DNA from: Candidatus Nomurabacteria bacterium | Lineage (GTDB): Bacteria > Patescibacteriota > Minisyncoccia > Phycocordibacterales > SBAW01 | Length of the DNA: 64,000 bases | Direction: 5' to 3' | Assembly: GCA_943349945.1 (NCBI GenBank) | Contig: CALQZS010000001.1 | Coordinates: 51,339 to 115,338 of the forward strand | Part shown: one piece after another, positions 7,638 to 26,067 of the stretch | Layout: every line of letters starts with the position of its first letter | How positions within the stretch are numbered: position 1 is the first letter of the stretch | Translations under genes and position numbers: made by a program | Notes under the pieces: generated by a model | What the model saw: only the letters and a program-made list of their open reading frames with translations | What the model was told of the DNA's origin: nothing | The model's database searches: none

Positions 7638-8237
7638 GTGGACATTGCTGCACAAATTTTAGCATTTTTTGGAAACAACACGCCCCTGGTATCTTTTTTT
7701 GGAGCAATTATAGGTGGCGAAGAAACTCTCGTATTGCTTGTTATTTTTGCAGCGCGAGACACGCTTAACCTTTGGCACATTGTAATCTTTTTTTATGCCG
7801 GAGTAATGGTGTCAGATGCTTTGTGGTACCTGGTCGGCAGATCCAGAGTATTTAATTGGCTCATCACGCACAGACTTACGTTTAATGCATATACCTATTG
7901 GGGAAAGATGCTATACAAAACCATGGGCAACAACACACTGGAAGTATTGTTCATGACTAAATTTTTATATGGTTTTAGAATCCCTACCATCATGTATTTT
8001 GCTCAAGAACGTTTGTCGTTTCGAGCTTTTATACAATACTCACTACTGACCAACTTGATTTGGATGACCATAATCACCGTCTTTGCATGGTTTGCAGGAA
8101 AAGGTATCAAATTTGCTATGCATTTTTCACACAACATTCTCCTGGACGTCTTCCTCATTGGTGTGGTTATGGTTCTTTTTGCTCTTGTTGCTAGAATTGC
8201 CTCAAAGTACACAAAATCATGGCTCCAAAAGAAATAA
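7638..8237 (+). CDS. DedA/VTT-family-like integral membrane protein (start uncertain)
   Basis: Multi-TM protein with a GGEETLVLL segment resembling the DedA PGE..L.LAG motif. It sits in a ~40% GC region. The GTG at 7638 is the first plausible start after the tRNA repeat; the upstream part of ORF 7467..8237 overlaps the repeat and is rejected. Confidence 0.5.
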   Translation: MDIAAQILAFFGNNTPLVSFFGAIIGGEETLVLLVIFAARDTLNLWHIVIFFYAGVMVSDALWYLVGRSRVFNWLITHRLTFNAYTYWGKMLYKTMGNNTLEVLFMTKFLYGFRIPTIMYFAQERLSFRAFIQYSLLTNLIWMTIITVFAWFAGKGIKFAMHFSHNILLDVFLIGVVMVLFALVARIASKYTKSWLQKK

Positions 8238-9661
8238 CTTCCCTCATACTCGAAGCCGAGTCAACAAGAGTTTTTTTCTTGATACACGGGTATACAGGCA
8301 GCTCGGACGACTTTCATAACTTGCCAGGTATTTTGCATAAAAAATTTAACGCAAACGTTAAAGTTATTTTGTTGCCTGGGCACGGCACCAAAGTTGAAGA
8401 CCTCGACCACATCACCTACGCAGATTTTATGTACGTGCTGCGCAACGAACTAGAAAAAGAACTGTCGAAGGGTATGGAGGTTATCTTAGGCGGGGTAAGT
8501 ATGGGTGGGCTGTTTGCGCTCTTACTTGCAGCCGAATACCCCGTACAAGGAGTTTTTAACGTTTCCTCTCCCTATGTTATGAAGTTTCCCTTTAACCTAC
8601 CTGGCTTAAAATACATTCTGAAGTACAAAAAATACTGGAAAAAGGCAACACAATCGTCGACACATTCAAAAACATCTGGGTCGTTTAGTTACACGCATAT
8701 GCACTCTAATGGATTTTATATAGCCGTGCAGGCAAAAAAAGAACTGCGGCGCGTTCTAAAAAATGTATCCAGCCCTCTACTCACCATATTTTCCACCAAA
8801 GATGACATTGGGCACATACGGTCGGTACGCAGCATACAAGAGGGCGCAAACTCCAGCATCAAAAGAGAGGGCATCTTCCACATAGAGCCGCATAATGTAT
8901 TTTATTCTAATGAAGACCACAAGGTAAATGATGAGATAGTACGATTTATTGAATATATAGATTTGCCAGAAAAGCACTTAGGCAGCCGCGAAAAAATTGC
9001 AGCCATTATCCCCGCCTATAACGAAGGGTCAAGAATAGAAGCAGTTTTGCGCGCAGTGACCGCTGTTTCTTTGATAGACGAGGTGATTGTTGTAGATGAC
9101 GGCTCTACAGACAATACACGCGAAGTAGTAACAAAATTTCCCAACGTCACCTACATACAAAACGAAGTAAATATTGGCAAAGCAGGCTCGCTAGACAAAG
9201 GAGTGACCCACACAGACGCATCTATATTGTTTTTCTGTGATGCCGATCTTAGAGGCATCACGCCTACAATGATTGAGCAGATACTCGAACCCGTCCTATT
9301 TCGCACATACGCGATGTTTATCGGCTTGCGCAATAATCCCATGCAAAAATCTGTGCACTTGTTTGCAATAAATTCTGGCGAACGCGCCCTAACACGAGAA
9401 GTATGGGAGAAACTACCCCACTATTTTAAACACCGATACCGAGTCGAAGCTGGCTTAAATTATATGGTACGAAAATATTTTGGAGGATTTGGCTACCGAA
9501 CCTTCGATTACTCGCAGCCCTTAAAAGAGAGCAAGTACGGACTAGTGAGAGGCACTTACTTGCGCTGGAGCATGAATATGGACGTCTTGCTAGCCTATAC
9601 TCGAGAAATTATCGAGCGGCTTTTTCGACCGCAAAGACTCTATACTTGCCATGACAAATAA
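8219..9661 (+). CDS. fusion protein: N-terminal alpha/beta-hydrolase (esterase) domain and C-terminal family-2 glycosyltransferase domain
   Basis: GVSMGG nucleophile elbow in the N-terminal half. The C-terminal half has IIPAYNEGSRIE...VVDDGSTDNT...CDADL. Low GC. Confidence 0.75.
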   Translation: MAPKEITSLILEAESTRVFFLIHGYTGSSDDFHNLPGILHKKFNANVKVILLPGHGTKVEDLDHITYADFMYVLRNELEKELSKGMEVILGGVSMGGLFALLLAAEYPVQGVFNVSSPYVMKFPFNLPGLKYILKYKKYWKKATQSSTHSKTSGSFSYTHMHSNGFYIAVQAKKELRRVLKNVSSPLLTIFSTKDDIGHIRSVRSIQEGANSSIKREGIFHIEPHNVFYSNEDHKVNDEIVRFIEYIDLPEKHLGSREKIAAIIPAYNEGSRIEAVLRAVTAVSLIDEVIVVDDGSTDNTREVVTKFPNVTYIQNEVNIGKAGSLDKGVTHTDASILFFCDADLRGITPTMIEQILEPVLFRTYAMFIGLRNNPMQKSVHLFAINSGERALTREVWEKLPHYFKHRYRVEAGLNYMVRKYFGGFGYRTFDYSQPLKESKYGLVRGTYLRWSMNMDVLLAYTREIIERLFRPQRLYTCHDK

Positions 9662-9764: not shown

Positions 9765-10603
9765 TGGATTTCAAAGACAGAGTCATCCTCTACCACGGCA
9801 ACTGCCTCGACGGCTTTGGCGCGGCGTATGCTGCCTGGAAAAAATTTGGCGACTCCGCAAGTTATATTGCAGTCTTCCATGGCGACGCACCACCTACAGG
9901 ACTTGAGGGTAAGGAGGTATACATCGCCGACTTTAGCTATCCAAAAGAGCAGCTACTCGAGCTGGAGAGGCAGGCAAAGCGCCTGGTCGTGCTCGACCAT
10001 CACGAAGGGGCAAAGGGGTATGTCGAGCTTGTTCGCGAGCACATCTTCGACAACGACCGCTCGGGCAGCGGCATCGCGTGGGAGTATTTTAACCCCAACA
10101 TTCCCCTGCCTCGCCTACTTGCCTACATACAAGACGGCGACTTGTGGCGACACAGCCTGCCGCAGTGGCGCGAAGTTGGGGCATATCTAAGCACCGCGGC
10201 ATTTACCTTCGAAACCTTTGACACCCTCGCCATAACATTTGCAGACGATGTGGAGTTTGAAAAAATAATCCAAAAAGGCGCAGCCTTTGCCGAGTATCGC
10301 GACTACCTGTGCCAAAAGTTTATCGAGAACGCAGAAGAGGTGCAGCTGGACGAGTTTAGTGTGCTTGCCGTCAACACGCCGCGGCTTTTTAATTCTCAAG
10401 TGGGCAACCTGTTAGCACAGAAGCATCCACCCTTTGCAATTGTGTGGTATCCAAGTGATAAAGATTGGCATTTTTCGCTCCGCGGCACAGGCGAAGTAGA
10501 CTTGGCTGCTGTGGCACAGCGCCGCGGCGGCAACGGCCATCACAATGCGGCAAGCTTCCGTATCCCCTTTGGACAACCATTCCCGTTTACTCGCAAAGGT
10601 TAG
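9764..10603 (+). CDS. nrnA: DHH/DHHA1 phosphoesterase (NrnA-like nanoRNase/pAp phosphatase)
   Basis: Motifs VLDHH and GGNGHHNAASF. The ATG overlaps the tRNA-Val CCA by 1 nt. Confidence 0.8.
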   Translation: MDFKDRVILYHGNCLDGFGAAYAAWKKFGDSASYIAVFHGDAPPTGLEGKEVYIADFSYPKEQLLELERQAKRLVVLDHHEGAKGYVELVREHIFDNDRSGSGIAWEYFNPNIPLPRLLAYIQDGDLWRHSLPQWREVGAYLSTAAFTFETFDTLAITFADDVEFEKIIQKGAAFAEYRDYLCQKFIENAEEVQLDEFSVLAVNTPRLFNSQVGNLLAQKHPPFAIVWYPSDKDWHFSLRGTGEVDLAAVAQRRGGNGHHNAASFRIPFGQPFPFTRKG

Positions 10604-10605
10604 TT

Positions 10606-11850
10606 ATGCGTGTACTAGCAATAGAAACGTCGTGCGATGAGACAGGTATCGCGATAGTAGAAGGTATAAAAACTAGCGCACCAGGAGGTTTTACCTTTAC
10701 CCTTTTGGGTGCTGCGGCGCTCAACTCGCAAGCAGCACTGCACGCACACTACGGCGGCGTCTTTCCCAGCCTTGCCAAGCGCGAGCACGAAAAAAACTTG
10801 CCGGTTATTTTAGCGCAGGCACTAATGCATGCACAGCCGAAATTCGCACGAGAAAATAGTCTGGCCCGAAGCTCGTCCGAAGACGAGCAAGGGAGAACCG
10901 AGGACTTTTTCGAGGCGAATTTTGGCGAAGCAATAAACGCTTTACACATAGACGCCATAGCCGTGACCCAAGGCCCTGGGCTTGAACCCGCACTGTGGAC
11001 AGGTATCACCTTTGCACAAAACCTCGCAAAAGAAACAGGACTGCCGTTGTTGCTAGCCAACCATATGGAAGGGCATCTTATCTCATCTCTTGCACAACCC
11101 GAACATTCTAGCATTCTGCAGAATGCTAGAATGTTTACACTAGAAAATGTGCAGCTACCAGTGCTTGCACTGCTCATCTCGGGCGGACACAGCGAATTTG
11201 TGTTGATGAAAAACTGGTTCGAATACTCCGTAGTGGGAGAGACACAAGACGACGCCGTAGGCGAAGCCTTCGACAAAGTTGCACGCATGCTCGGACTCCC
11301 CTACCCAGGCGGCCCCGAGATATCCAAAATTGCTGATGTCGCTAGAAAAGCGAAGATGCAGAGTTTGGAGGGGCTCCACAGCGCGTCTGCATCTTCGCTT
11401 GTTCTCCCACGCCCTATGCTCCACAGCAAAAATTTAGACCTTTCTTTTTCTGGACTCAAGACCGCTGTACTGTACGCGCTGCGCGACTTGGGCGGCATAC
11501 AAAAACTATCGCACGAGCAGATAGCAGAATTTGCCCGAGAGTTTGAAGATGCCGTAGCCGACGTGCTGGTAGCCAAAACTCGGCGCGCATTGGAAGAAAC
11601 TGGCGCCCAAACATTTGTAATCGGCGGCGGTGTTGCAGCAAACACCTACCTACGCGAGAGGCTTAGCGCGTGCGTGCAAAACGAGTTCCCCCACGTGGCC
11701 CTGCGACTCCCCGACCTCTCTATAACAGGCGACAACGGCATCATGGTGGCACAGGCTGCGCTTGCCCGCGCACTTTCTGGCTTGGACGACACCCCAAAGG
11801 GCGAGGTACGCGCCTACAGCAATAGGTTCTCGATTTTAGCGCCAAAATAG
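10606..11850 (+). CDS. tsaD: tRNA N6-adenosine threonylcarbamoyltransferase TsaD
   Basis: Contains LAIETSCDETGIAIV and VIGGGVAANTYLRERL. Start is taken at MRVLAIE within ORF 10465..11850. Confidence 0.9.
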   Translation: MRVLAIETSCDETGIAIVEGIKTSAPGGFTFTLLGAAALNSQAALHAHYGGVFPSLAKREHEKNLPVILAQALMHAQPKFARENSLARSSSEDEQGRTEDFFEANFGEAINALHIDAIAVTQGPGLEPALWTGITFAQNLAKETGLPLLLANHMEGHLISSLAQPEHSSILQNARMFTLENVQLPVLALLISGGHSEFVLMKNWFEYSVVGETQDDAVGEAFDKVARMLGLPYPGGPEISKIADVARKAKMQSLEGLHSASASSLVLPRPMLHSKNLDLSFSGLKTAVLYALRDLGGIQKLSHEQIAEFAREFEDAVADVLVAKTRRALEETGAQTFVIGGGVAANTYLRERLSACVQNEFPHVALRLPDLSITGDNGIMVAQAALARALSGLDDTPKGEVRAYSNRFSILAPK

Positions 11851-15172: not shown

Positions 15173-15499
15173 TTAGTGTTTTTCTTCTTTAATCCTTTTT
15201 GCGAGTTTGTCCATTTGTTTTGGAAATTCTGTTTCAAGGTCAATACCAAGCGCATCTGCTACTCGAATAGTTGACCACAAACAGTCACAAACTTCATGCC
15301 GGAGCTTTTCGTCAAGATCTTCAGCGGGAGCGCGCACACCCGACTTCATCAGAACTAACCGCGCAAGCGTGCCTAAATCTTCCATAAACCCTTGCATGTA
15401 ATGCTGCAGCTCCCATTTAGAGTGACCTTGTTCTTTATTAAGCTGATCGTATAAGAAACTAATTTCCCGAGCTTTTTTTGCAAGTTCTTGAAATTCCAT
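15173..15499 (-). CDS. MazG-like nucleotide pyrophosphohydrolase domain protein
   Basis: MazG-type helical fold motifs (EDLGTLARLVL, CDCLWSTIRVADALGIDLE). The start is 5 nt downstream of the tRNA-Phe CCA. Confidence 0.7.
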   Translation of the reverse strand: MEFQELAKKAREISFLYDQLNKEQGHSKWELQHYMQGFMEDLGTLARLVLMKSGVRAPAEDLDEKLRHEVCDCLWSTIRVADALGIDLETEFPKQMDKLAKRIKEEKH

Positions 15500-15504
15500 A
15501 CTTT

Positions 15505-15580
15505 TGGTGCTCGGGGCCGGGCTCGAACCGGCGACCCCTTCCTCTTCAGGGAAATGCTCTACCAACTGAGCTACCCGAGC
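15505..15580 (-). tRNA. tRNA-Phe (anticodon GAA), CCA encoded
   Basis: GCTCGGGTAGCTCAGTTGGTAGAGC...CTGAAGA...GGTTCGAGCCC...CCCGAGCACCA. Confidence 0.9.
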
Positions 15581-15652
15581 GTTTTTGAACCTATATTACT
15601 AAAGTCCCGACGTTTTGTCGGGAGGCCGACCAATGCGTCGGCCCTACCCGAG
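15581..15652. repeat. ~60-nt twin-hairpin element (tcccgac-N5-gtcggga, ggccgac-N6-gtcggcc) followed by a 10-nt duplicate of the tRNA-Phe 5' end (ctacccgagc)
   Basis: The duplicate at 15643-15652 is identical to 15571-15580. A homologous module sits upstream of tRNA-Gly. Confidence 0.6.
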
Positions 15653-15698
15653 CATCTAACTGCTCCATCCTACCAAAAATAGGCAGAATAACAATATT

Positions 15699-15992
15699 TT
15701 ATTGTACAGGAGTTTCAGGTGATTTTGCTCCAAAACTCTGCAAGAAATCTTGCACCTGTTGCCCGCTGGCTTTAAATTGCTCGTACATTGCTTCTATTTG
15801 CCCCACGTAAGGCTGCAGGTAGATATAATACGCAGCGCCCGAAATGGCGATAATCGCTACCCACCACACAATCTGGAAAAATCGCCCCCACAGCGCACTG
15901 CGACGCAACTTGTGGACCATGCGGTTTGTGTCTTCTGCTAATTTAGTGTTTTTTTCTATGAGAGCTCGGAGCTCTTCTATATCATCGGTCAT
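15699..15992 (-). CDS. hypothetical small membrane protein
   Basis: 97 aa with a central TM helix. Confidence 0.45.
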   Translation of the reverse strand: MTDDIEELRALIEKNTKLAEDTNRMVHKLRRSALWGRFFQIVWWVAIIAISGAAYYIYLQPYVGQIEAMYEQFKASGQQVQDFLQSFGAKSPETPVQ

Positions 15993-16463: not shown

Positions 16464-16537
16464 TGGTGCGAGTGGGGAGAATCGAACTCCCGCCCAGTGC
16501 TTGGGAAGCACTTATTCTACCACTAAACTACACTCGC
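16464..16537 (-). tRNA. tRNA-Gly (anticodon CCC), CCA encoded
   Basis: GCGAGTGTAGTTTAGTGGTAGAA...TTCCCAA...AGTTCGATTCTCC...CACTCGCACCA. Confidence 0.9.
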
Positions 16538-16605
16538 AATGTTCTACCACTAAATCCCGACGCGAGGAGGTCGGGACCCCGACTAATCGTCGGGGCTACA
16601 CTCGC
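16538..16605. repeat. ~58-nt twin-hairpin element (tcccgac-N8-gtcggga, ccccgac-N5-gtcgggg) followed by a 10-nt duplicate of the tRNA-Gly 5' end (ctacactcgc)
   Basis: The duplicate at 16596-16605 is identical to 16528-16537. Same module as at tRNA-Phe. Confidence 0.6.
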
Positions 16606-16617
16606 TTGAGAGCTAAT

Positions 16618-17010
16618 TTACCACACAAACAACGCACGGAATATCCCCCGCCACCAGCCCTCTTTTTCTGGAGCAGGAGGCGTTAGGGCGGCGCTGTCGC
16701 GCACTATTTCTATCTCGCCTTCGCCAGGCTTTACTACGCCATAACGTTGGCGTATCTGTGCCTCGGTCCCCCGCTCTGACGAAAGCTCTGCTACCGAAGC
16801 TGCCACTTTTACTCTTTGTGCCTCCAAGGTTGCCAACTCCCGCTCTGCCTCGCTTTGCCCAGCTGTCGCCGTAGCAAGTTTGCCATACATACCAGCCGCC
16901 GCGCGCACCGACGCCACCGTTACCACAAAAAGCACCAGAACCCCCACCACCTGGAGCAAGAAAACAGCTAGAGATTTTTGGCTACTTCGGTGCTTTTTAA
17001 ACTCGCGCAT
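16618..17010 (-). CDS. septum formation initiator (FtsB/DivIC-like)
   Basis: N-terminal TM segment, a coiled coil, and a YGVVKPGE motif. Confidence 0.55.
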   Translation of the reverse strand: MREFKKHRSSQKSLAVFLLQVVGVLVLFVVTVASVRAAAGMYGKLATATAGQSEAERELATLEAQRVKVAASVAELSSERGTEAQIRQRYGVVKPGEGEIEIVRDSAALTPPAPEKEGWWRGIFRALFVW

Positions 17011-23096: not shown

Positions 23097-23490
23097 CCCC
23101 GCTTTTGGCGGGGCGTCTACAATATCTAGCGCGCGCGTCTGTAAGCCGAGTTCTGTCTCCGCCGGTTGGCGGAAGCAACAATTTATCTAGCTCGGGCGTT
23201 ACCGCCCGAGTCAAGCGGCACTCCCACACAAGGTGGGCACGGCCTTGCACTTGGACAAGGATTTAGCTCCGACACCCCGAAGGGGTCGGAGTCCCGGTTT
23301 ATTACGTCGGGACCGTTTCACTCCCACTGAAGGGACTCGTCTCTGTTCGCACCTCTGGTGCCCGCTAGCAGCACCCGATGGGGATTACCCACTGCCTGTC
23401 TGCACTCCACATTTCTGTAGAGGCAAGTGCTCGGACTTTCCTCTCTGACTATTCGTCAGAGCTGTTACTCGACGCGCTCTCTATATTGTA
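23097..23490 (-). ncRNA. rnpB: RNase P RNA (bacterial type)
   Basis: On the minus strand: P4 region GAGGAAAGTCCGAGCAC, GGGAGTGAAACGG, ACAGAACTCGGCTTACAG, and P1 pairing between the 23471-23490 and 23120-23140 regions. A hairpin follows at 23095-23116. Ends are approximate. Confidence 0.75.
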
Positions 23491-23929
23491 CCACAATTTT
23501 TTGCCCAACGCCAATGCCCGCCGCGGCAATATAGCCCGCAGGAACCTCCAGCACATAGCGCGCAGGCGCGTGTGGATAAAAAATCTTGGGGTAGGTATTG
23601 GGAGTAACATTTGGCCATACGGTCACAATCATCCCGTCGTCATCTGCCCAAATAATATCAATCGCAAATCGCATATCCTTCATCCAAAAACCCCACTTTC
23701 CAACTTGTGGAAACACAAACAGCATGCCGCTCCCTTGGGCGAGCGACTCCCGCCCAGAGAGTCCTTGTTGGCGCTTTGCCGGAGTATCTGCAACATCCAC
23801 CACCAATGTGTTACTACCGACAGTGATGCGTTCTGCTGTAGGCGCGGGCGTATGCTGCACTTGAAATACGCCCCACACAAGCAAGGCGACAGCACAAAAA
23901 ACAATTAATCCGAGTATATATTTGATCAT
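23465..23929 (-). CDS. DUF192-domain protein, membrane-anchored
   Basis: MIKYILGLIVF anchor and MLFVF...WMKDMRFAIDIIW motifs. The last ~9 codons overlap the inferred rnpB 5' end. Confidence 0.65.
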   Translation of the reverse strand: MIKYILGLIVFCAVALLVWGVFQVQHTPAPTAERITVGSNTLVVDVADTPAKRQQGLSGRESLAQGSGMLFVFPQVGKWGFWMKDMRFAIDIIWADDDGMIVTVWPNVTPNTYPKIFYPHAPARYVLEVPAGYIAAAGIGVGQKIVVQYRERVE

Positions 23930-25287
23930 AGTTGCCCACCGCAAGCGCGCAAAAATTGTTCGTGCATTTTTTGCAAATCGCCCTCGGGCATGGCGCCAAA
24001 CGTGTGTGCCGCATCTTCTGACTGGTCGCGAAATTGCTCGTCGCGCTCCAACACCCCAGGATGCACCTCGAACGTGCGCTTGTTCCATCCTAAAATGTAG
24101 AGTCCCGAAAGCCGACGCACACGCGAGAGCGCCACATACCCCTGCCCAAACTCGAAGGTATCGTGCAAGTCCATCACTGCTTCATCTAAACTCATACCCT
24201 GGCTTTTATGCACAGTAATGGCCCACGCTAGCCGCAGCGGCACTTGCGTGACTCGCGCATGCACCTTGCCCCCCTCTTCCACAGTCCACTCCATGGGTTC
24301 CACCTCGATAGAGCGCCCACTGCGGGTTACCACTGTCGGATATCCGTTGTAGCCACTAAACCCCTCAACCATACCGAGCGTGCCGTTGACGTAGCCCTCT
24401 TTGGGATTGTTTTTTGTAAACATAACTGACGCCCCTTTTTTGAGCTGTAAAACTTCCGGCGATATACAGCTTTTAACCAGCGCCGCCACTATTCCTGCAG
24501 TCCCCTGCGACGACATCGCAAATGACTTTTGGGTGCCGGGCAGCGCGCGCAGTGTCATATCGTTAATCCTGTCTACATCAGCATTGTGCGAAAAAAGTTT
24601 TGGTGCATTTTTGGGCACTTTGTGTGGCGCGACTTTGCGTGCGGCAATATGTTCTAGGTGTGTATCTCTAAATGTGTTTTTGCGTATCGCGTCGAGCACG
24701 CTCAAGTATGCATGGTCGTCTTGTCGGTGCTGTTCGGTTAGATAACACACAATAGGGTTTGCCCGTGCCCACACCGCGGCATCGTAGGCAAAGTGCGTGC
24801 GTGACTCGTCGACAAATAGGTCGTTATCTTCTTCTTGGGGCACGGCGCGCACAATAGGCGGTAGCTGAAAAAAGTCTCCAACCAACACCACTTGGAGCCC
24901 CCCAAAAGGTCGCGCACTACCTAACACTTCACGACACACCGCATCAACCATCGCAAGCGTGTTGTCGGCAAGCATCGACACCTCGTCGATAATTAAAATT
25001 TTGGTGCGGCGGATTTGCTTGACCACCCGCTCGAGCGAGGCGATGCGGTCAAGCTCGTAGGCATCGAGCTTTTGTTTGATGCCTATACCGCTCCAAGAAT
25101 GTACGGTCATGCCGCCTATATGCGTGGCGGCAATACCTGTAGAGGCGGTAATTGCCGGCTCTATACCCCGTGCACGCAACCATGCAATGTACTGGTTTAT
25201 AGTGTGCGTCTTGCCGGCCCCCGGCTCGCCGGTTAAAAACACATTTGCGCCAGTTTTGAGTATGTCGAGCGCTGTTTCTTGAGTCAT
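23926..25287 (-). CDS. PIF1/RecD-like ATP-dependent DNA helicase
   Basis: Walker A (GEPGAGKTH), ILIIDEVSM, VGDFFQLPP and HKSQGMSLD. Confidence 0.8.
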   Translation of the reverse strand: MTQETALDILKTGANVFLTGEPGAGKTHTINQYIAWLRARGIEPAITASTGIAATHIGGMTVHSWSGIGIKQKLDAYELDRIASLERVVKQIRRTKILIIDEVSMLADNTLAMVDAVCREVLGSARPFGGLQVVLVGDFFQLPPIVRAVPQEEDNDLFVDESRTHFAYDAAVWARANPIVCYLTEQHRQDDHAYLSVLDAIRKNTFRDTHLEHIAARKVAPHKVPKNAPKLFSHNADVDRINDMTLRALPGTQKSFAMSSQGTAGIVAALVKSCISPEVLQLKKGASVMFTKNNPKEGYVNGTLGMVEGFSGYNGYPTVVTRSGRSIEVEPMEWTVEEGGKVHARVTQVPLRLAWAITVHKSQGMSLDEAVMDLHDTFEFGQGYVALSRVRRLSGLYILGWNKRTFEVHPGVLERDEQFRDQSEDAAHTFGAMPEGDLQKMHEQFLRACGGQL

Positions 25288-25374
25288 AGGTATCTCAAAC
25301 TATACCAGAGAAGGCACGCCTGTGGTGGCTCGACCCAGATGCTGTAAAAGGCCCGAGGTTGTATACTGGTGTGT

Positions 25375-26067
25375 ATGGAATTAACACGCGGAAGTGCAGA
25401 GCTTGAAGCATTAAACGTACAGCTAAACAACGAAGAAGATTTGCTTGCCTATAAAAAGCCGCTCGACAACTACCACCCCGCGCTCGTACCGCGCTTACTG
25501 GGCCACACACTCGTGTGGTGCGGCAACACCGTGTACGGCAAGCGGCCATCGTATTTAAAATTCCGCGCAGTCGAGATTATTGCGCGCGTCCCCTACCACT
25601 CGTGGGCATCAGCTGCGTATACTATGTTGACGCTCTTTTACAATAACGAACAAAAAGCGATGCGCTTGTCCGAAACAGCAAAGTACGCACAACTTGCGCA
25701 AGACAATGAGACCATGCACGTCGTTGTTATATCGCAGCTAGCTAAACGCGAGCGTAAGGCTGGGTTTTTGCGCCACACGCTTGTACCGATGTTGTTTGCG
25801 TTTGTCTATTTTTGGGCATCATACTTGTTGTACTTGGTTAAACCGCGTTACTCGTACGAGCTTAACTACATGTTCGAAAACCATGCATTCGAACAATATA
25901 CTGAATTTATTCATCGCCATGAAGAGGGGCTTAAAAAGAAGCCTGTCGACAGCGCATTTCTTGCTTGGTATGGCCGCAACCCAGAAAATCAGTACGAGTT
26001 CTTTCGTTCTATACGCAACGACGAAATAATCCACCGCAACACCTCGATTGAAGAAATCGGAAGGTAA
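25375..26067 (+). CDS. alternative oxidase/plastid terminal oxidase-family di-iron carboxylate protein
   Basis: Four-helix ExxH signature: VEIIARVP, NETMH, ENHAFEQYTEF, RNDEIIHRN. Confidence 0.65.
   Translation: MELTRGSAELEALNVQLNNEEDLLAYKKPLDNYHPALVPRLLGHTLVWCGNTVYGKRPSYLKFRAVEIIARVPYHSWASAAYTMLTLFYNNEQKAMRLSETAKYAQLAQDNETMHVVVISQLAKRERKAGFLRHTLVPMLFAFVYFWASYLLYLVKPRYSYELNYMFENHAFEQYTEFIHRHEEGLKKKPVDSAFLAWYGRNPENQYEFFRSIRNDEIIHRNTSIEEIGR

Follow-up and report, generated by a model that had tools for sequence, protein, structure and literature searches.

The tRNA-Gly gene in a 64,000-nt stretch of Candidatus Nomurabacteria DNA (contig CALQZS010000001.1, positions 51,339 to 115,338; this whole stretch is called the window below) is preceded by a 68-nt insert at 16538-16605. 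This insert is the short form of a recurrent, polymorphic and oriented module in which two adjacent hairpins, the twin hairpin, have displaced the original start of a tRNA gene and are followed by a new one; in its long forms the module also carries a miniature GIY-YIG nuclease gene. The arrangement of the sequence shows that the upstream piece of tRNA is the original gene start, displaced and dead, and that the downstream tRNA consists of a new 5' part, beginning at the mature +1 position, joined to the old 3' part. The modules of the window are fixed in the species and absent from the same sites in relatives. The insert is probably a short member, lacking an open reading frame (ORF), of a Patescibacteria-wide family of selfish, nuclease-associated elements residing in the 5' halves of tRNA genes.

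The tRNA-Gly module and its sister copies

All parts of the tRNA-Gly module lie on the minus strand and are described here in the direction of the tRNA. The native leader of the gene with its −10-like hexamer (TAAATT, then 9 nt; 16606-16620), kept in both filled and empty alleles, runs into displaced nucleotides 1-10 of tRNA-Gly, GCGAGTGTAG (16596-16605), which are still attached to it. There follow hairpin 1 (CCCCGAC-GATTA-GTCGGGG, 16577-16595) and hairpin 2 (TCCCGAC-CTCCTCGC-GTCGGGA, 16555-16576), each located by motif search and folding and each with a 7-bp stem, then a D-arm remnant of the displaced 5' fragment, TTTAGTGGTAGAA (16542-16554), that is an exact copy of tRNA-Gly nt 11-23, and a 4-nt spacer, CATT (16538-16541), that leads from the remnant to the +1 position of the intact tRNA. 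The latter, a tRNA-Gly(CCC) with an encoded CCA (16464-16537), is called by ARAGORN and by the Rfam tRNA model (69.3 bits) and reads GCGAGTGTAGTTTAGTGGTAGAA... from 16537 onward. The duplicated segment is nt 1-23, split by the hairpins between nt 10 and 11, and the 68 nt contain no ORF. The CATT spacer differs from the native leader, which ends in ...CTCAA in the window and in ...GTTCAT in the empty allele.

The initial annotation of this insert had the coordinates and the 10-nt repeat right, 16596-16605 being identical to tRNA-Gly nt 1-10; the segment aatgttctaccactaaa, which it assigned to the insert, is the CATT spacer together with the exact copy of nt 11-23. The two stable hairpins that it expected are recovered on folding: as DNA, the pair reaches −14.7 kcal/mol (z = −3.4), a stability attained by none of 200 shuffles, and as RNA, the leader plus tRNA-Gly folds with z = −3.5 while retaining both hairpins and the acceptor stem of the tRNA. 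The pattern CCGAC-N3-12-GTCGG occurs seven times in the window against 0.34 expected, a number reached in none of 100 shuffles.

Conservation of the −10-like hexamer between alleles suggests that the native tRNA-Gly promoter would drive transcription through the insert. Promoter assignments rest on such conserved hexamers and were made by eye; a simple sigma-70 consensus scan did not call them, that of tRNA-Gly included. The hairpins themselves show a weak −35-like resemblance, and the consensus scan for a promoter within them was negative.

The initial annotation had also pointed to a related copy at tRNA-Phe, and this copy has the same layout. The module (15581-15653, minus strand), defined by sequence and folding, comprises a copy of tRNA-Phe nt 1-10 (15644-15653), a twin hairpin (15605-15643) and 24 nt of decayed D-arm remnant and spacer (15581-15604), followed by the intact tRNA-Phe(GAA) (15505-15580; ARAGORN, Rfam). 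Motif search and folding revealed a third twin hairpin on the plus strand, at 1385-1424, that lies in frame within ybeY (ORF 1263-1658), far from any tRNA and without a flanking repeat. Its reading frame, ...NPDVSVGVPTKASG..., brings the YbeY product to 131 aa, compared to 116 aa in hairpin-free homologues, a gain of 15 residues, and its DNA fold has z = −4.4. A decayed version of this insert is present in a 78% relative, which marks the ybeY copy as older.

A twin-hairpin repeat family in Patescibacteria

The hairpins of the window belong to a family defined by two adjacent hairpins with 7-bp stems, YCCCGAC-loop-GTCGGGR twice (in its general form NNCCGAC...GTCGGNN), to which 16555-16595 conforms. 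The pattern was found at more than 120 loci in one-genome-per-species contigs, nearly all of them labelled as Patescibacteria lineages (taxon labels of metagenome-assembled genomes (MAGs) are those given by the depositors), and at a further 65 metagenome loci; individual loci fetched for comparison are designated by L and a number. The window as a whole has its greatest similarity to MAGs of Nomurabacteria and Minisyncoccia. Since these loci were picked by the hairpin pattern, and the metagenome scan by a GTAG left flank plus hairpin, the frequencies reported below are biased towards this type of hairpin and towards tRNA sites.

A search for covariation, which the initial annotation had proposed, gave a clear result. 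In 95-96% of 270 hairpins, pairing is retained at stem pairs 6 and 7, beyond the invariant CCGAC core, with four pair types in use (CG, TA, GC and AT), whereas shuffled partners pair in 62-70%. The next position outward from pair 7 is unpaired, so that the stems are exactly 7 bp long, and the loops are highly variable, with 153 distinct sequences of 4-9 nt. The left flank is biased to Y-A-(G/A/T), with C never found at −1, and is GTAG at tRNA sites. The same hairpins are found within coding regions and at random intergenic sites.

No Rfam family fits the hairpins at gathering and E-value thresholds, only tRNAs and RNase P being matched. A phage origin was considered and rejected, as just two matches were found among 2.9 million viral contigs. 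The literature searched contains no description of the twin-hairpin family or of the nuclease-tRNA layout described below, and a published paper on Patescibacteria tRNA group I introns mentions neither; the element is apparently undescribed and common in these ultra-small bacteria.

In one Taylorbacteria MAG (L090, L095, L106, L110 and L116), many near-identical copies of CTCCGAC-GCTTCG-GTCGGAG CCCCGAC-CGAAGC-GTCGGGG lie within a longer repeat, ...TATACGA | hairpins | ATGAATACGAAT..., in what looks like a lineage-specific burst.

Modules at tRNA gene starts

An unselected genome sample contains 134 twin hairpins, of which 19 (about 14%) lie no more than 120 nt upstream of a tRNA 5' end, the remaining 86% or so being away from tRNAs. 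About 16 of these 19 have flanks that repeat part of the 5' region of the tRNA concerned, and the orientation is identical in 16 of 17. Flank repeats are confined to tRNA sites; the hairpin copies elsewhere have none.

The modules share a general layout: tRNA nt 1-k, twin hairpin, nt k+1 to m, spacer or ORF, and intact tRNA, with k = 10 and m = 23 at the tRNA-Gly of the window. Fifty non-redundant modules were assembled from genomes and metagenomes, at tRNAs for Gly, Phe, Thr, Arg, Pro, Met, Asp, Ala, Lys, Asn, Ile, Glu and Leu; no module at a tRNA-His was present among the fetched loci. The value of k is 10 in 41 of the 50 and 11, 12, 15, 16 or 22 in the others, and a D-arm remnant specific to the tRNA concerned follows the hairpins in about 50 modules. 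The distance from hairpins to tRNA is bimodal, 17-29 nt or 255-333 nt; the window modules, with 17 nt (Gly) and 24 nt (Phe) between the hairpins and +1 and no ORF, belong to the short class. No convincing 3' terminus motif common to long and short forms was found, the short forms favouring ...TAT| before +1.

The boundary of the duplication is sharp. In the 35 modules with a perfect upstream copy, the two tRNA copies are 100% identical from +1 to +10, 46% identical at −1/−2 and about 30% identical further upstream; at their other end the upstream copies stop abruptly, not by gradual decay. In L222 the repeat boundary includes an extra AAATAT. Of 76 tRNAs in the loci fetched, 11 have a 10/10 match to their nt 1-10 within 200 nt upstream, and none has one within 200 nt downstream. 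In hairpin-selected loci, 40 of 196 tRNAs bear an upstream copy of their own first ten bases, and no tRNA among the 196 has such an exact copy without a structured insert.

Two or three modules may stand in a row upstream of one tRNA, with near-identical hairpins, either in tandem (L168, L185, L200) or nested (L010, L210), which suggests repeated rounds or unequal exchange.

Several further arrangements were observed at tRNA genes. Other families of GC-rich hairpins (CCACCGCC/GGCGGTGG and TGCCCGCC/GGCGGGGCA) lie within displaced 5' fragments of tRNAs, arranged as in the modules above, at tRNA-Ser (L038, at 1817 and 6370), tRNA-Leu (L185, at 3224) and tRNA-Thr (L200, L205, L209 and L054), and one of these families carries a different GIY-YIG subfamily. 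At tRNA-Thr, yet another hairpin family follows a pseudo-copy that ends near nt 34. The polarity is reversed in L104 (1480-1668) and L156, where the intact tRNA comes first and is followed by a second copy that lacks the first 7 nt or so, has hairpins in its D-arm and keeps its 3' part.

Filled and empty sites in relatives

Both tRNA modules of the window, and the tRNA-Gly itself, are unchanged in at least 16 same-species contigs from different samples. The tRNA-Gly site is empty in L143-146, in which the neighbouring 97-aa protein is 80% or 65% identical. The empty allele reads ...ggtaaattagcgttcat|GCGAGTGTAGTTTAGTGG, and its intergenic region measures 127 nt against 195 nt in the window, a difference of exactly 68 nt. 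The tRNA-Phe site is empty in L141 and L142, the former a 96% relative, and filled in an 85% relative (L139), where the D-arm remnant is less decayed and still reads CTCAGT. The conserved −10-like hexamer and leader run directly into the displaced fragment, which is therefore the start that the gene originally had; the new DNA is the 5' part of the tRNA that now functions. The same juxtaposition of native promoter and leader with the displaced partial copy contradicts the proposal of the initial annotation that the element inserts exactly at the tRNA 5' boundary, as does the position of the hairpins themselves, which follow nt 10 (elsewhere nt 11, 12, 15, 16 or 22) of that copy.

In a syntenic, distant locus (L083, about 70% nucleotide identity), the tRNA-Gly module has different loops and a GGCC/GGCC stem, representing either an independent hit or an old polymorphism.

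The surroundings of tRNA-Phe (15173-15700) vary in other ways: in the 96% relative the tRNA is inverted and a 108-aa MazG-like gene is missing, and in the 80% and 65% relatives (L143-L147) the tRNA-Phe leader contains a 48-nt insert holding an inverted tRNA-like fragment.

Long forms carrying a GIY-YIG nuclease gene

The long forms contain an ORF of 74-97 aa whose start lies 4-38 nt beyond the hairpins and which extends as far as the intact tRNA, 255-333 nt downstream. A GIY-YIG ORF directly after the hairpins was found in 16 of the 65 metagenome loci, and additionally in L055, L071, L097, L010 and L038. The product consists of a GIY-YIG domain (Pfam E-values of 3e-13 to 3e-15), and in structural comparisons of a predicted model (predicted local distance difference test (pLDDT) 89.5) its nearest solved relatives are UPF0213 proteins and Slx1, with UvrC and I-TevI more distant.

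The ORF and the tRNA are interlocked. In L152, L160, L162, L180, L201, L071 and L224 the ORF has no stop codon of its own and ends on the conserved tRNA bases T8-A9-G10, while that of L097 ends on a tRNA TAG at nt 20-22; in each such case the coordinate of the stop codon in the tRNA equals the position of the hairpins in the displaced copy. Since the stop codon lies in the tRNA, cleavage by RNase P at +1 would part the ORF from it.

A control independent of the hairpins was provided by a protein search with the nuclease, which gave 107 matches, all annotated ones being from Patescibacteria. All four homologues chosen from these matches without regard to hairpins proved to lie in the same arrangement of displaced tRNA 5' fragment, hairpin cluster, D-arm remnant, ORF and intact tRNA. 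In L210 and L010 an ORF-bearing module is followed by an ORF-less module with near-identical hairpins, and the 182-nt spacer of L194 contains a decayed ORF C-terminus (E = 8e-4, compared to 0.68 for the best control).

A model for the origin of the modules and its alternatives

The data presented above have led us to propose a model whereby the hairpin pair enters the D-arm region of a tRNA gene, with a preference for ...YAG| sites such as G7-U8-A9-G10; its entry would be due to its own mobility or be aided by the Slx1-like structure-specific nuclease. As each tRNA is essential, only those lineages in which the tRNA 5' part was rebuilt downstream would survive. The element would then ride the strong tRNA promoter and be transcribed as a structured 5' leader that is removed by RNase P. 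On this model the family is selfish and nuclease-associated and exploits the tRNA promoter, and the insert of the window would by now be such an RNase P-removed leader. The window copies would have arisen either from long forms by internal deletion or by the same process without capture of an ORF; random deletion is disfavoured as the origin of short forms, because their spacers cluster tightly and lack ORF remnants.

Several observations weigh against this model. Pfam scans of about 50 ORFs and a search with the nuclease hidden Markov model (HMM) revealed no nuclease gene, transposase or recombinase in the 64-kb window, and L194 is the exception among short and intermediate spacers, the others containing no detectable ORF remnant. 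The short spacers are narrowly grouped in length, near 20 nt, as would be unusual for random deletions, and the tRNA-specific D-arm remnant stands between hairpins and ORF, so that the two do not form one contiguous insert. The hairpins far outnumber the nuclease genes, are present without them at coding and intergenic sites, and may constitute an independent repeat family. The loci were ascertained by the hairpin pattern (in metagenomes, GTAG plus hairpin), with frequencies biased as described.

It is possible, though we doubt it, that the twin hairpin is indeed an independent repeat resembling repetitive extragenic palindromic (REP) sequences or miniature inverted-repeat transposable elements (MITEs), moved by another enzyme, for example a transposase of the Y1 or REP-associated tyrosine transposase (RAYT) type acting on single-stranded hairpins beside a GTAG-like tetranucleotide. 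Its link to the nuclease would then be indirect, the hairpins merely gathering in dispensable tRNA 5' pseudo-fragments left by a separate process such as invasion by a nuclease gene or partial duplication. The roughly 86% of copies that lie off tRNAs, including the one in frame in ybeY, agree with this explanation, as do the absence of a flank repeat at non-tRNA sites, the redundant tRNA copies broken by hairpins in L104 and L156, and the left flank itself, Y-A-(G/A/T) without C at −1 and GTAG at tRNA sites; REPs bear a 5' GTAG that is recognised by RAYTs. However, every exact upstream 5' copy (40 of 196 tRNAs) has a structured insert, the four nuclease loci chosen without bias all have hairpins at the same junction, the stop codon of the ORF coincides with the hairpin insertion coordinate, and no Y1 transposase was found among the roughly 50 window ORFs in the Pfam scans. 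An improbable alternative is that the module is a selected, cis-acting 5' leader whose hairpins, together with a decoy of the tRNA 5' strand, regulate the processing, stability or transcription of the tRNA. Fixation and invariance within the species, the constant orientation and spacing of about 20 nt with T favoured at −1, the stable fold of the leader and the maintenance of stems through compensatory changes, both family-wide and between the window and L083, would be expected of such a leader. Yet the same tRNAs do without the module in close relatives, the same hairpins occur in coding regions and random intergenic sites, the D-arm remnant decays (window tRNA-Phe versus L139), the tandem and nested copies resemble repeated invasion, and no Rfam family matches.

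We regard as very improbable the model of the initial annotation, a small non-autonomous transposon that inserts at the tRNA 5' boundary and generates a 10-bp target-site duplication. Its description of the element holds in part: the insert is small, repeated and non-coding, is present or absent in relatives, and its family is strongly enriched at tRNA 5' regions. The exact 10-nt direct repeat at two tRNAs of the window, the prevalence of k = 10 (41 of 50 modules) and the empty sites that differ by exactly the module length also speak for it. A plain target-site-duplication transposon is nevertheless contradicted by the copy of nt 11-23 beyond the hairpins, which would fall inside the supposed element, by a repeat that always begins at +1 but differs in length between tRNAs (10, 11, 12, 15, 16 or 22), by the whole gene that lies between the repeats in long forms, and by the non-tRNA copies, which have no duplication. 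Nor do all copies abut the +1 position of a tRNA, as had been expected: the ybeY copy and about 86% of the 134 copies in the unselected sample do not lie beside one, an observation that the initial annotation had itself named as refuting its model. Hardly credible is the remnant of a tandem duplication of the tRNA gene in which a hairpin struck the upstream copy, which then decayed; L104 and L156 do have full tandem tRNA copies with one disrupted, but in the tRNA-Gly module 23 of 23 nt are identical while the spacer CATT differs from the leader TCAA, the boundary is sharp at +1 in 35 modules, and the upstream copies stop abruptly. In a simple tandem duplication or an unequal sister exchange the spacer should equal the native leader, contrary to what is found, and both were rejected. 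None of plain target-site duplication, tandem duplication and sister-chromatid repair accounts for the copy of nt 11-23, for the mismatch of spacer and leader, or for the exact +1 boundary. A tRNA intron or D-loop expansion was also rejected, since in silico removal of the hairpins never restores a tRNA across the site, an intact tRNA follows, and no Rfam intron family matches.

For the rebuilding step within our proposed model of a nuclease-associated element, we offer a speculation that we ourselves consider unlikely, namely that the tRNA 5' half is restored by RNA-templated DNA synthesis on mature tRNA once the D-arm region invaded by the hairpins has been broken. From the break, the antisense 3' end would be extended on the mature tRNA and run off at the 5' end made by RNase P, and the new copy would be joined by end-joining to the hairpin-bearing left end. 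Such a process would fit all the features and would account for the exact start at +1, the tRNA specificity of each copy, the older fragments stacked upstream, the short fillers between fragments and the nuclease ORF that ends on a tRNA TAG. If true, this would be a natural instance of RNA-templated repair that shapes bacterial genomes, coupled to a new class of hairpin and mini-GIY-YIG elements; the exact +1 boundary is a testable hint of an RNA-templated or transcript-end-defined repair step.

The modules matter in other respects. Essential tRNA genes in the ultra-reduced genomes of Patescibacteria appear to be recurrently invaded and repaired, with 40 of 196 tRNAs affected in hairpin-selected loci, and a very abundant GC-rich repeat is linked to a miniature, Slx1-like GIY-YIG nuclease, providing a candidate enzyme together with a candidate substrate. 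The modules also yield long structured tRNA leaders and pseudo-tRNA fragments, and the hairpins give in-frame inserts of 13-15 residues (as in YbeY), all of which affect annotation, tRNA counting and assembly.

Other features of the window

The gene for a class A RNase P RNA lies at 23126-23480 on the minus strand (106 bits, against a gathering score of 100) and contains a CCGAC...GTCGG hairpin at 23269-23289; a gene for a PIF1-like helicase (23926-25287, minus strand) is directly beside it. The ORF at 25369-26067 (plus strand) matches the alternative oxidase family (PF01786, E = 4e-13), which is unexpected in Patescibacteria. Two plus-strand ORFs are fusion-like: that at 8219-9661 combines an alpha/beta hydrolase with a family 2 glycosyltransferase, and that at 10465-11850 encodes TsaD with an N-terminal extension of about 150 residues.

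Comparison with known systems

The twin hairpins resemble REPs and bacterial interspersed mosaic elements (BIMEs) in being paired, short, GC-rich palindromes that are dispersed in many copies and are maintained as hairpins. The palindromes of the window are perfect, and the left flank is a GTAG tetranucleotide at tRNA sites but only Y-A-(G/A/T) overall. They differ from REPs and BIMEs in that no RAYT was found in the window, copies lie in frame in genes and in tRNA fragments, and the associated protein is a GIY-YIG rather than an HUH/Y1 enzyme. Inverted ends (YCCCGAC / GTCGGGR) are shared with MITEs; in contrast to these, there is no flank duplication away from tRNAs, and at tRNAs the repeat is of variable length.

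Genomic islands and prophages with tyrosine integrases duplicate the 3' part of a tRNA gene, are kilobases long and encode the integrase. The modules are similar to these in that a tRNA gene is targeted and remains functional and the insert is flanked by a repeat of tRNA sequence, and are dissimilar in that the 5' part of the tRNA is duplicated, the element measures 68 to about 400 nt and no integrase is present in the window. TIGR-Tas systems consist of a long tandem repeat-spacer array beside a Nop-domain Tas gene (PMC12045711). This assignment was rejected, as the window contains single dispersed twin hairpins and no array, and Pfam scans gave no Nop-domain match.

Mitochondrial double-hairpin elements and the palindromic elements of Rickettsia are tiny mobile elements that occur both between genes and, in frame, within protein genes. 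The GC clusters of yeast mitochondria are likewise tiny mobile hairpin elements (PMC4478555). The twin hairpins share with these three groups their two hairpins, their occurrence at intergenic and in-frame sites and a TAG-like insertion preference, while their sequence family and host clade are unrelated. None of the three is known to be associated with a GIY-YIG gene or with the rebuilding of the 5' half of a tRNA.

Endonuclease ORFs of fungal mitochondria, of the type found in Allomyces atp6, invade a gene with an insert that supplies a replacement for the gene end, the old end being left as a pseudo-fragment. Invasion of an essential gene is similarly tolerated in the modules by means of a replacement copy of the displaced end. 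Here, however, it is the 5' end of an RNA gene that is replaced, with the new sequence starting exactly where the mature RNA starts, the replacement is specific to the host and not visibly foreign, and the window copy has no ORF.

T4 SegB is a free-standing GIY-YIG homing endonuclease whose gene lies in a tRNA cluster and which recognises a conserved tRNA motif, the T-psi-C stem-loop (PMC2330249). Unlike the SegB type, the Patescibacteria nuclease is a bare catalytic domain of 85-97 aa near UPF0213 and Slx1 with no DNA-binding domain, the element sits inside the duplicated 5' part of the tRNA beside a twin hairpin, the ORF may end on a TAG of the tRNA, and the window copy has no ORF, the nuclease HMM matching nothing in the window. 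What the two types have in common is a small GIY-YIG gene among or against tRNA genes, whose presence varies between relatives and which is inherited together with flanking tRNA sequence.

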